DNA of 64,000 nt from Escherichia coli (lineage in GTDB: Bacteria > Pseudomonadota > Gammaproteobacteria > Enterobacterales > Enterobacteriaceae): NCBI RefSeq assembly GCF_009931435.1, contig NZ_CP043414.1; one strand, given 5' to 3'. Positions 47,050-51,035 of this stretch are shown here, one piece after another. How positions within the stretch are numbered: the first letter of the stretch is position 1; every line of letters starts with the position of its first letter. A program made the position numbers and the translations under genes. The notes beneath the pieces are model-generated. The model was not told where the DNA came from, ran no database searches, and saw nothing but the letters and a program-made list of their open reading frames with translations.

Positions 47050-47068
47050 TTGCTGATTTGCCTTTAAT

Positions 47069-47106
47069 GCCGGATGCGACGCCTGCGGCGTCTTATCCGG
47101 CGTACG
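47069..47106. repeat. REP element after rdgC
   Basis: gccggatgcgacgcctgcggcgtcttatccggcgtacg. Confidence 0.75.
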
Positions 47107-47126
47107 AATCCACACCAGGCATATAA

Positions 47127-47582
47127 TCATTCGCTACGGCGGGCAATAATTTTTAGCGCAGCAATATTATGCGTTTTACGCCGTAACTGATCCAACCGTC
47201 TCATCCCTATTCGCCTGTCAGCGGCACGCAGAATATTCACTAACCCCCATTTATCGCTGGTACATTGTTTCGTTAACAGCTCCGCTTTTGGGGTATCAAT
47301 ATATTCACGCAATAAATCAGAAATTGAACAAATATCCGTCAGATAAGGATACCAGCAAGTTTCACCATGAAAATTACGCACTCCACCATTGCCTGCCATA
47401 AAGTCTTTTGGGTAATCCCAGATCACGTCTTTATCCAACGTGATCCAATAACGCGGTAAATCGGAGCTTCCACCATTTTGGCTGCGCATGGGATAACGGG
47501 TACAGTGAATTTGCAGGTTGATCGTTGGCGTCAGTAAGTCATAAATCTCCCTCTGTAACTTGCTCCAGGGGCGTTGTGTCAT
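47127..47582 (-). CDS. Hypothetical 151-aa protein, second gene of the accessory operon (no signal peptide)
   Basis: Track ORF; its ATG overlaps the stop of the upstream 762-aa ORF by 4 nt (ATGA); no motif recognised with certainty. Confidence 0.6.
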   Translation of the reverse strand: MTQRPWSKLQREIYDLLTPTINLQIHCTRYPMRSQNGGSSDLPRYWITLDKDVIWDYPKDFMAGNGGVRNFHGETCWYPYLTDICSISDLLREYIDTPKAELLTKQCTSDKWGLVNILRAADRRIGMRRLDQLRRKTHNIAALKIIARRSE

Positions 47583-49867
47583 TGTTTTTCCTCAAGCCGG
47601 TTACGCGCTTCACTGCGAATTTGCCGCGTTGCCCCGGTTTTCACTAAATGACGTAACTGCGAAAGATCGGGCTGATCAACAAATAAGATTAATGATGCAT
47701 CCTCCTTTAACCACGCCGTTTTCACATCGGCAGCCAACTGTGGATTATTAATAGCCAGCGCCCGATCCTGTGACTCAGTCAATGTCGTTAACAAAGAGGC
47801 TGGGGTATGTACATTGCGCAACGCCGTCTGCCGCAAATGATCATTGTGACTTTTCAGCAATCCGCACCACCATTCATCATCTGATTTATCTTTTATCGTA
47901 TCCAGCTCCGCAAAAATATCGCTTTCCTCATGATTCCAGCGGTGTAATCCCCTTTCACTTTGTCTACGGGTGCTATTTTTCATACTGACAACAGACAACG
48001 CCCAGTCGGAGTTAAAACGATACTGTTGATCGAGTTTGTTGATAATTCCGGAGGGTAAATCTTCATTATCAAATAGCTGGTTTCGCATCCGATAGCGGTA
48101 TTCAGCAGGTAAATAAACCAGTAAATCGATGGCATTATTAAACATCTCTTCGTCAATAATACCATTATCAATCAGCGCCAGCTGTACTTCGTAGGCTTGC
48201 TCTTGATCTTCTTGCCGTTTACTCATCATTAATTTTAAGGTGTGTTGCCATAATTGTTTCTTATACTCCAGAGGTAATAATTTATCGCGTGCCAGCTCAT
48301 ACCAGATGCTGGGAATGTCATGCTGATTCAGTAGATAACTAATCACTTCCTTCGAGGTCAGATAACGCATGCCGTCACGTAAGTTGTGCACATCTTCTTT
48401 TGCCAAAGTCAGTTGACGCGACTCCGGCAAAGCGACCAATAACGCCTTCACGATATTTTTATTTTCTTTATTATCCAGATACATTTGTTCTGCGATACGT
48501 TCAACATCCTCTGTCCTCAGGGTCGCTGACAGTTGGGTGATTTTTAGTTCAGTAAGCGTCCGGGCTAATGCTTGACGAACTTTCAGCGATTTATCTTTAC
48601 TCAACAACACCGCTTGTTGTGCGGTTAAATCGGTTCCGGTAATTCTTTCGCGTAACTCCGGAGCTTCGCTATTTATCAATTCATCGACCACTGCAGTTGG
48701 AACCAGCCAGGCGTAATCGTAATGGCTGATTAATGTCTTGCGCACACTGAGAAAAGGGCTTTGACTTAACGACACAACAATATCAGGAGAAAGATTATCC
48801 TGTCTGGCCTGCTCCAGCTGTACGCTCTCGACGGGTACAGACATTAATTTTTTATTCACTTCGGCGGATATATTGCTGTTTTTAACCAGTCCTCTGGCAA
48901 CAGCTTCATCTTTAATTATTTCGTCGGTAAGCAAATGCATCTGTTGAGCGGGCCAGGACTGCGCCATCGATTCACGCGTCTGGTCATCGGGGTGCTGTAA
49001 CAGTTGCAGCATAACGGCGGTTGACAAACGCTCTATATGAGTCAGAAAACGTGCCACCAGTGGATCTTCATGCTTTATTTTATCCGCAAGGAAATTATCG
49101 AGTTTCCCCGTTTCAATCCATTTTAATTTCTCATTAATTTCAGGAGCAGCTTTATCTCGAAAAAGAGGTAAACCCTGAACGATATTGTCTACGACGCTAT
49201 CATAGTCAGGATACGCATTGGAAATATTATCGGTTTCGATTTCACTATGATCATAAAGATTAGGCGTCACCAGTGAATAAACTTTTTGAATATTCTCGTC
49301 CCAGTTATATTCTTCACCGCTTTCATCTTCATTGATATAAAACTCAGCTTTAATGACCTCAAATTGCGTTGCTTTATCGGAAACAATAATGCCTCGCGCG
49401 CTAATTCCTTTCATCACTTCAAAGTTGTGATCATTATAATCAGCATAAACCAAACCTTTCGCTGTCATCTGCCCTTTGACATACGCGAAATCATGATTAA
49501 TAAAGTTGTCGACAATAACATTACCTAATACAATCAGATGACCATTACCTGACAGATAATCATCATAATCGCCGGAAATCGTTAAATTACCGTTCACCAC
49601 CAATTTATTTTGATTGCTGAAGTTAGCGGGTAATGATAGGTCACCATTATGATAATACCAACGGATATTATCTTTCAGCATATAAGCAGCTTCCATACTA
49701 TCGTTGGTTGCCGCTTTAACCACGTTGCGCTCATCTGCCGTCATAAGATGAAAGTCAGAGGTGATAAGGTCCTCGCTACTGATCCACTCTGTGGCACATG
49801 CATTGCCAGTCATAAAAAACACGACCATACAGATGACCAATATATTAATTCTATTCATAATCTTCAC
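47579..49867 (-). CDS. Hypothetical 762-aa secreted protein (signal peptide; Gly/Asn-rich N-terminal region; helical-repeat C-terminal region)
   Basis: Track ORF; N-terminus MKIMNRINILVICMVVFFMTGNACA is a Sec-type signal; no catalytic motif recognised. Confidence 0.65.
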   Translation of the reverse strand: MKIMNRINILVICMVVFFMTGNACATEWISSEDLITSDFHLMTADERNVVKAATNDSMEAAYMLKDNIRWYYHNGDLSLPANFSNQNKLVVNGNLTISGDYDDYLSGNGHLIVLGNVIVDNFINHDFAYVKGQMTAKGLVYADYNDHNFEVMKGISARGIIVSDKATQFEVIKAEFYINEDESGEEYNWDENIQKVYSLVTPNLYDHSEIETDNISNAYPDYDSVVDNIVQGLPLFRDKAAPEINEKLKWIETGKLDNFLADKIKHEDPLVARFLTHIERLSTAVMLQLLQHPDDQTRESMAQSWPAQQMHLLTDEIIKDEAVARGLVKNSNISAEVNKKLMSVPVESVQLEQARQDNLSPDIVVSLSQSPFLSVRKTLISHYDYAWLVPTAVVDELINSEAPELRERITGTDLTAQQAVLLSKDKSLKVRQALARTLTELKITQLSATLRTEDVERIAEQMYLDNKENKNIVKALLVALPESRQLTLAKEDVHNLRDGMRYLTSKEVISYLLNQHDIPSIWYELARDKLLPLEYKKQLWQHTLKLMMSKRQEDQEQAYEVQLALIDNGIIDEEMFNNAIDLLVYLPAEYRYRMRNQLFDNEDLPSGIINKLDQQYRFNSDWALSVVSMKNSTRRQSERGLHRWNHEESDIFAELDTIKDKSDDEWWCGLLKSHNDHLRQTALRNVHTPASLLTTLTESQDRALAINNPQLAADVKTAWLKEDASLILFVDQPDLSQLRHLVKTGATRQIRSEARNRLEEKQ

Positions 49868-49965
49868 TGATATTTATATCAACCTTGATGAATTATGAAT
49901 ATATCGGAAATCGAAAAAATCGCAGCAAAGGAAATATTATTATGGGTTAAAGAGAAGATATTTCA

Positions 49966-49995
49966 GAAAAATGCCCTCCCGTTCATGGGGAAGGC
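49966..49995 (-). terminator. Probable terminator of ppnP
   Basis: Minus-strand hairpin (gccttcccc-atgaac-gggagggc) followed by attttt. Confidence 0.5.
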
Positions 49996-50001
49996 GAGGA
50001 A

Positions 50002-50286
50002 TTACAGATAGCGGCACAGATAAGAGGTGGGTTCGGCAACTTGCAGATGAAACTCGCTGTGACCGGGAACATTAAACACCGAACCGGCTTCATACACTTG
50101 CCAGTCGGTCGCGTCAGGCAGTAACACATTCAGCGCACCACTGATTACCGTCATCTCTTCAGGCTCAGCGGTGCTGAAGGTGTATTCGCCTTCAACCATA
50201 ACACCCACGCTGGCGCGACCAGTGCTGCTGCTGGAAAAGCCGATCGATTTCACTTTGCCGGAAAAGTACTCATTACTTTGAAGCAT
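50002..50286 (-). CDS. ppnP: Pyrimidine/purine nucleoside phosphorylase PpnP (YaiE)
   Basis: Track ORF, 94 aa. Confidence 0.92.
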
Positions 50287-50357
50287 AAACTGGCCCTGTC
50301 TGGTAGTTGAACATCTACTTCACTATAGGGGCCAGAGGCGCTGGCTGTCACGCAAAA

Positions 50358-51035
50358 TTACACCAGTAATTCCGCAGCTAGCCTTGCAATCAATACGTTA
50401 GAGAGCAAGACAGGAACATCGAGCTGTTTTTGCAGTAAATCGCGATGACGCTGGTTAAATCCCAAACAATCCAGCATGATGACATCTGCGCCTTTTGCCA
50501 GTAATTCTTTCCCGGCATCAATGATTTTTTGTTCCGAATCATGAATGGGGTTACCCAATGAAAATACTGGCGGTTTCTGCAAAATTTGCCATTTTTGCGC
50601 CTGAACGGTCAGTAGCTCTTCAACCGGTACGATAACCCCCACCTGATGATCTTCAACAATAGATGAAACCAGCGGTGGCAATATTCGCGACGGCTCAAGA
50701 AAGATCGTATTACGCGCGGTCATACTCCTAATGTTTGCCGTACTCATTAATATAATGACGTCGTAACCCTGATTATCGAGCACTTCAACCACACCTTGCA
50801 GGTCTCGCTCCACTTTGCGACGCGAAACATGGGCCAGCTGGTTGTCATTTAATAATGTGAGAATTGTGTCTTCGCCTGCTTCTGGCGCGTACTCCGCCAT
50901 CACTTCTTCGCGGCTTAACTTCCCCAGCAGGCTATGATGGGAAATATTATCTTCGTCAATGTATTCTGTCAGGAGCGGCAAAACTTCCTGCATAGGTACA
51001 ATGCCGATGGTCAGGATCGCCAACGACGCACTCAT
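50358..51035 (-). CDS. aroM: Protein AroM
   Basis: Track ORF, 225 aa. Confidence 0.9.

Follow-up and report, generated by a model that had tools for sequence, protein, structure and literature searches.

Terminator of ppnP and probable promoters of the following gene pair in one intergenic region of Escherichia coli

The DNA under study (the window) is a stretch of 64,000 nucleotides of an Escherichia coli chromosome. Its minus strand carries, in this order, aroM, ppnP, an intergenic spacer, a gene for a 759-aa protein with a DUF2773 domain and a gene for a 151-aa protein of the SF0329 family. The next gene, rdgC, lies on the plus strand in convergent orientation. The identity of ppnP (also known as yaiE) follows from a Pfam match, with which the RefSeq annotation at near-identical loci agrees. 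The genes and the spacer are located as follows:

50002 to 50286, minus strand: ppnP (yaiE) coding sequence, 94 aa, stop codon TAA at 50004-50002 (Pfam Ppnp, E = 5e-34)
49859 to 50001, minus strand: spacer between ppnP and the gene of the 759-aa protein, 143 nt, counted to the ATG
47579 to 49858, minus strand: gene of the 759-aa protein, ATG at 49858-49856, C-terminal DUF2773 domain
47127 to 47582, minus strand: gene of the 151-aa SF0329-family protein (Pfam SF0329, E = 1.4e-22; NCBIfam SF0329_fam)

The initial annotation let the large gene begin at a GTG at 49867, which yields 762 aa. This is the longest-ORF call; orthologues are annotated with 759 aa from the ATG at 49858, and the strongest transcript start known from K-12 in this region (window 49865, see below) lies downstream of the GTG. 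Counted to the ATG, the distance from the end of the hairpin behind ppnP is 115 nt. The ATG of the SF0329 gene overlaps the stop codon of the large gene (ATGA).

The spacer is rich in A+T (73% in 49868-49960, as compared to 49% in the whole window), a value reached by only 0.5% of all 93-nt windows of the whole window. It is colinear with E. coli K-12 from window position 49860 into ppnP (97.6% identity). In the range 49860-50010, 145 of 151 positions are identical; the six differences (49890, 49912, 49947, 49954, 49956, 49986) spare the stem and the U-run of the hairpin, the motif cores, the -10 elements and the transcript starts described below. A permissive search of 49000-51000 on both strands returned no match to Rfam families at E <= 1.

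Published K-12 data can be placed on the window by means of this alignment. The coordinate in U00096.3 equals 458463 minus the window coordinate, as derived from the published coordinates of ykiD and the K-12 alignment. Coordinates in U00096.2 are, as we take it from the lacZ coordinates, those of U00096.3 minus 776. A cross-check of the U00096.2 mapping on two transcript starts confirms this: 407372 falls exactly 7 nt past the -10 element TATAGT of ppnP, and 407755 falls 7 nt past the element CATAAT in the spacer.

Directly behind ppnP, RNA folding and a pattern scan both point to a stem-loop, which begins 7 nt past the stop codon TAA:

49973 to 49995, minus strand: terminator hairpin, 8-bp stem and 7-nt loop
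49995 to 49988, 49980 to 49973, minus strand: the stem arms GCCUUCCC and GGGAGGGC, separated by the loop CAUGAAC
49972 to 49965, minus strand: U-tract AUUUUUCU, directly adjoining the 3' side of the stem

The stem comprises six G-C pairs, one A-U pair and one G-U pair. Its folding energy of -15 kcal/mol (z = -2.4) is equalled by 2 of 200 dinucleotide shuffles. The locus thus has the layout of an intrinsic terminator, with a G+C-rich stem-loop on the transcribed strand just past the stop codon and a U-run 3' of the stem, although this run is short (five U's followed by C). The scan for terminator patterns was not above chance, with 2 overlapping matches in a 2-kb region as compared to 1.6 +/- 1.4 in shuffles. 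It is the position, the strand and the transcript end mapped in K-12, rather than the pattern scan, that make the hairpin convincing.

This transcript end comes from Term-seq in K-12, where the 3' end of yaiE at U00096.3 408495(+) is listed as "primary" (Adams et al., 2021, eLife, PMC7815308, Supplementary file 1). The position maps to window 49968, which is the fourth U after the stem, and the flanking sequence as printed is that of the present hairpin (PMC7815308). The end is entered three times in this file, which covers three growth conditions; the class "primary" is the only description of the yaiE end found in the supplement, with neither an intrinsic-terminator score nor a read-through value. 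The locus and the hairpin at which this K-12 end was measured are those of the window, with identical stem and U-run; in the loop, a single base is exchanged, K-12 having U where the window has A. We conclude that the hairpin is the Rho-independent terminator of ppnP, as the initial annotation had assumed.

Five other Escherichia lineages have the identical stem, except that O157 is missing one inner pair and that one pair is gained in E. albertii as well as in Escherichia sp. E4930. Across six Escherichia lineages, 7 of 10 pairs are invariant and none is changed on both sides, an invariance that gives covariation little to test. The ppnP-rdgC spacers of Salmonella, Enterobacter and Citrobacter are much shorter, and their hairpins are unrelated. 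In O157:H7, in which both downstream genes are intact (L010, 4028-4083), the innermost stem base at the equivalent of window position 49988 is G instead of C, which leaves a stem of 7 bp. The terminator of O157:H7 may be slightly leakier owing to this shortened stem.

The AT-rich part of the spacer had been proposed to hold a promoter of its own. Cappable-seq of K-12 grown in M9 glucose (Ettwiller et al., 2016) lists three 5'-triphosphate transcript starts there, and with each of them a suitably placed -10 element was found in the window. Together with the promoter of ppnP itself, these are:

50315 to 50327, minus strand: ppnP promoter, GTGACA-18-TATAGT by scan, -10 element TATAGT at 50327-50322, start at 50315
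49932 to 49944, minus strand: promoter a, weak, CTGAAA-16-CATAAT by scan, -10 element CATAAT at 49944-49939, start at 49932
49889 to 49911, minus strand: promoter b, with ATTTCCGA (49911-49904) within the core promoter, the -10-like block TATATTCATAAT at 49903-49892 and the start at 49889
49865 to 49881, minus strand: promoter c, extended -10 element TGaTATAAA at 49881-49873, 8 nt ahead of the start at 49865

In the K-12 dataset (U00096.2 coordinates), the start of ppnP at 407372 (window 50315) has an RRS of 1.7. The starts of promoters a, b and c are found on the plus strand of K-12 at 407755 (RRS 4.5, enrichment 6.2), 407798 (RRS 24.1) and 407822 (RRS 79.9, the highest in the spacer), respectively (Ettwiller et al., 2016). 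Candidates for the -10 element of promoter b are TATATT and TATTCA (49903-49896), 7-9 nt ahead of 49889, and its transcript would have a leader of 31 nt. The leader of the transcript starting at 49865 measures 7 nt before the ATG and is too short for a Shine-Dalgarno sequence; given this leader, the transcript may yield no protein. The -35 elements are poor. The SMRT-Cappable-seq dataset holds no entry for these genes. In sum, several sigma-70-type promoters that serve the downstream genes are clustered in the AT-rich stretch.

One of these promoters has been studied before. According to Salscheider, Jahn and Schnetz (2014, NAR, PMC3950696), a fragment of the yaiE-ykiA intergenic region drives lacZ in K-12. 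The same paper describes this promoter (PykiA) as activated by BglJ with a requirement for RcsB, with a start mapped by 5'-RACE and a basal activity so low that it is nearly silent in ordinary culture. A first predicted motif, which overlapped the core promoter, was dispensable there, whereas activation was abolished by mutation of a box whose centre lies 79 nt ahead of the start (PMC3950696). The K-12 promoter drives ykiA, which is entered in the paper as a 113-aa protein of unknown function. In the window, the orthologous DNA is likewise AT-rich, with candidate motif cores and -10 elements unchanged with respect to K-12, and precedes an intact 759-aa gene together with its SF0329 partner.

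The RcsB-type core motif wwTTCykA, as published, matches the spacer in two places only, namely ATTTCCGA at 49911-49904 and the following site:

49970 to 49963, minus strand: candidate BglJ-RcsB box TTTTCTGA, overlapping the U-tract of the terminator

The centre of TTTTCTGA lies 77.5 nt upstream of the start at 49889, as compared to the published 79 nt, and it is the sole match at a suitable distance. Among the spacer starts, the published layout of motifs fits the one at 49889 alone. Because this spacing matches the description in PMC3950696, we infer that the start at 49889 is the best candidate for the one that depends on BglJ-RcsB. If TTTTCTGA at 49970-49963 is indeed the box, the activator site would overlap the U-tract of the ppnP terminator. 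The TTTTCTGAAAT core is invariant in all six aligned Escherichia lineages, including E. albertii, in which the neighbouring sequence has drifted. The genes bglJ and rcsB lie outside of this window.

This data suggests a simple mechanism. Transcripts of ppnP would end at the intrinsic terminator (49995-49973) and its U-run, with the RNA 3' end near 49968, and the two downstream genes would be transcribed, without dependence on ppnP, from promoters of their own with starts near 49932, 49889 and 49865. The published "ykiA" promoter would be among these promoters, wired into the LeuO / BglJ-RcsB cascade and activated when the BglJ-RcsB heteromer binds some 79 bp upstream. To judge from the sequence, the terminator and promoter signals would also work in the window strain, the measurements being all from K-12. 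We consider it very probable that the spacer is an ordinary intergenic region composed of the terminator of ppnP followed by promoters of the next two genes. Both functions have previously been mapped experimentally in K-12, and the arrangement is in this sense already known.

The initial annotation had placed its emphasis on read-through, by which ppnP and the two downstream genes would form one operon with a leaky hairpin and with the ppnP promoter as the main source of mRNA. The genes are indeed co-directional and 143 nt apart, the run of five U's before the C is short, and the stem has one pair fewer in O157. Transcription also gets to the K-12 remnant of the downstream gene: a Rho-termination region peaks at 408811 inside ykiA (Adams et al., 2021, PMC7815308), with upstream/downstream reads of 172/30 in the absence and 347/385 in the presence of bicyclomycin. 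It follows from these counts that transcripts enter the untranslated remnant in K-12 and are stopped there by Rho. However, the strong primary 3' end within the U-run argues against such an operon, as does the independently regulated promoter demonstrated in the spacer (PMC3950696). The 5' tags point the same way: against the RRS of 1.7 at ppnP and a total of about 14 for the four listed starts that closely precede the terminator, the three spacer starts reach about 108 in K-12. The spacer promoters are, by K-12 5' tags, much stronger than ppnP's own. The tag counts indicate that read-through would contribute a small share even if the terminator failed totally, in a comparison that leaves out promoters farther upstream (e.g. 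of aroL-yaiA-aroM). These data are from K-12, in which the downstream gene is cut off 1 nt ahead of its ATG. Altogether, a common operon fed from ppnP appears very improbable, and read-through is probably at most a minor route to the downstream genes. The mapping of transcript ends and starts that had been suggested as a check is thus available for K-12 from published data, with an end at the hairpin and separate starts behind it.

Cappable-seq of K-12 also lists a start at 407675, which corresponds to window 50012, 10 nt before the ppnP stop (RRS 5.6, enrichment score 6.5). Together with the 3' end at 49968, it would give an RNA of about 45 nt that comprises little beyond the terminator hairpin. 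Since this start lies 44 nt before the 3' end, the hairpin could be thought of as an attenuator, at which a short transcript usually stops and from which it extends upon some signal. Reading of the sequence upstream of 50012 gave no convincing -10 or -35 element, Rfam gave no match at E <= 1, and there is no evident alternative anti-terminator pairing or leader peptide. Taken as a whole, the spacer shows no exceptional folding (z = -1.2), and stronger starts lie downstream of the hairpin. We regard attenuation as extremely improbable in comparison to plain termination of ppnP transcripts.

A different objection concerns the spacer starts themselves, which might be non-adaptive, as is common in AT-rich horizontally acquired DNA, with no dedicated regulatory promoter among them. 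Promoter-like matches are over-represented on both strands of the AT-rich region (11 found, 4.8 expected), motif matches alone being not above chance in AT-rich DNA. Plus-strand sites of this kind are seen at 49833-49861 and 49911-49940. The three starts fall within 70 nt, and in most E. coli the spacer promoters drive only a pseudogene remnant. Furthermore, a Rho-termination region antisense to yaiE at 408419(-), i.e. near window 50044 on the plus strand (Adams et al., PMC7815308), implies antisense transcription from the AT-rich spacer into ppnP. Some of the spacer starts may well be transcriptional noise. As an account of the spacer as a whole, this appears unlikely: activation is specific, depends on RcsB and is lost when one box is mutated (PMC3950696), and the diverged spacers of E. 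albertii and Escherichia sp. E4930 still contain the TTTTCTGAAAT core and the -10 blocks. The proposal of a promoter within the AT-rich stretch holds for K-12, where three Cappable-seq starts and a BglJ-RcsB-activated promoter mapped by 5'-RACE are on record.

A near-palindrome, GATATAAATATC (49869-49880), overlaps the extended -10 element of the strongest start, and its version in Escherichia sp. E4930 is a perfect 12-bp palindrome, GATATTAATATC. This element could be a protein-binding site or merely a hairpin of the 5'-UTR.

A second repeat of the spacer reaches into the downstream gene:

49852 to 49901, minus strand: perfect 10-bp inverted repeat, arms TATTCATAAT at 49901-49892 and ATTATGAATA at 49861-49852

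The second arm covers the ATG of the 759-aa gene. Folded as RNA, the repeat reaches -12.4 kcal/mol (z = -2.4); an inverted repeat of such length occurs in 3% of shuffles of the AT-rich spacer and is only mildly unusual. Both arms are kept in Escherichia sp. E4930, where a U-to-C exchange turns a flanking G-U pair into G-C. The ATG would be sequestered in RNAs that start upstream of about 49901, and not in one that starts at 49889. One may imagine a two-layer insulator, in which an activator site within the U-tract and distal part of the terminator is combined with a repeat that buries the start codon in RNAs with a long leader (from read-through or from 49932), the activator-dependent, short-leader RNA from about 49889 alone being free of the upstream arm. 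We think this distinctly unlikely. If true, it would mean that production of the secreted 759-aa protein is confined to times of BglJ-RcsB activity, no matter how leaky the terminator is.

Between co-directional transcription units of bacteria, spacers in which an intrinsic terminator is followed by the next promoter within about 40-100 bp are a general feature, and they insulate two differently regulated units. As compared to such generic spacers, the present one is unusual only in the clustering of three starts and in the probable overlap of an activator half-site with the U-tract.

The downstream genes had been described as an accessory operon, which is misleading with respect to the spacer. 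Of 5426 complete E. coli genomes, 5424 are matched by a spacer probe of 601 bp; the match continues to the left of window position 49860 in only 444 of them. A two-gene unit of full length is present in 443 genomes, or about 8% of the complete ones of E. coli, and these include O157:H7, in which both genes are intact. The spacer belongs to the E. coli core, and the gene pair is a cassette specific to the genus, since lost by most strains.

The loss can be followed in K-12. Window 47921-49859, with the start codon and 646 codons, is missing there, and five filler nucleotides (TGGAG) mark the junction. K-12 is also without 47195-47552, and most E. coli lack both segments. The K-12 gene ykiA is a remnant of the 759-aa gene, and YkiD (27 aa, experimentally detected) is a fused remnant of the SF0329 gene. 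Strain CH458 and Escherichia sp. MOD1-EC7003 have the same junction with the TGGAG filler, which points to a single ancient deletion and subsequent decay. In E. albertii (L015), an independent internal deletion has left the spacer, the first codons and the SF0329 gene in place. In Salmonella, Enterobacter and Citrobacter (L016, L017, L018), ppnP and rdgC are convergent and only 18-68 nt apart. From this closeness in other genera it follows that the hairpin, the AT-rich region and both genes make up an Escherichia-specific insertion of about 2.9 kb (about 47050-50001), which has a low GC content of 43%. The DNA of the 759-aa gene is about 93% identical between E. coli strains, as compared to about 98% for flanking core genes.

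Besides a signal peptide, the model of the 759-aa protein (pLDDT 75) predicts a short beta-solenoid at about residues 65-176 and a long alpha-solenoid that is HEAT/ARM-like. Its fold search against the PDB displays generic HEAT/ARM solenoid matches only, and the C-terminal DUF2773 region models as further helical repeats without a distinct enzyme domain. The SF0329 protein is modelled at pLDDT 91, and its fold search gave no match to a solved structure (best Foldseek E = 0.2). Outside of Escherichia, the 759-aa protein has hardly any relatives; the SF0329 family is much broader (361 representative clusters). A scan of genome contigs for relatives of the 759-aa protein returned one locus, which is a deleted Escherichia variant. 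The context in other species was taken from look-ups of exact proteins. A homologue of the 759-aa protein with 49% identity lies on a metagenome contig (L005), between sprT and a gene for a sugar transporter (MFS). A homologue of the SF0329 protein with 59% identity (L011) is found in a same-strand array of small genes, together with DUF2750/DUF2695 and TriTu proteins, which resembles arrays of immunity genes.

This array and the ATGA overlap prompted a reading of the pair as toxin and immunity protein, which we rejected as unsupported. Escherichia sp. E4930 and the locus of the 49%-identical homologue keep the big gene without an SF0329 gene, and PADLOC returned no matches. The DUF2773 region consists of helical repeats in the model, and the fold searches were generic for the 759-aa protein and empty for SF0329. 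The two genes are not an obligatory pair.

As a finding on its own, a terminator followed by promoters is a textbook arrangement; the by-product is a context for the K-12 literature. PMC3950696 mentions neither that ykiA and ykiD are deletion remnants nor that the box may overlap the terminator of yaiE. The "ykiA" target of BglJ-RcsB is no 113-aa protein in its own right: it is what remains, at the 3' end, of a 759-aa solenoid protein that bears a signal peptide. O157:H7 and the window strain keep the intact pair behind the same promoter, and the function of this branch of the LeuO / BglJ-RcsB regulon would be better studied in strains with an intact pair than in K-12.
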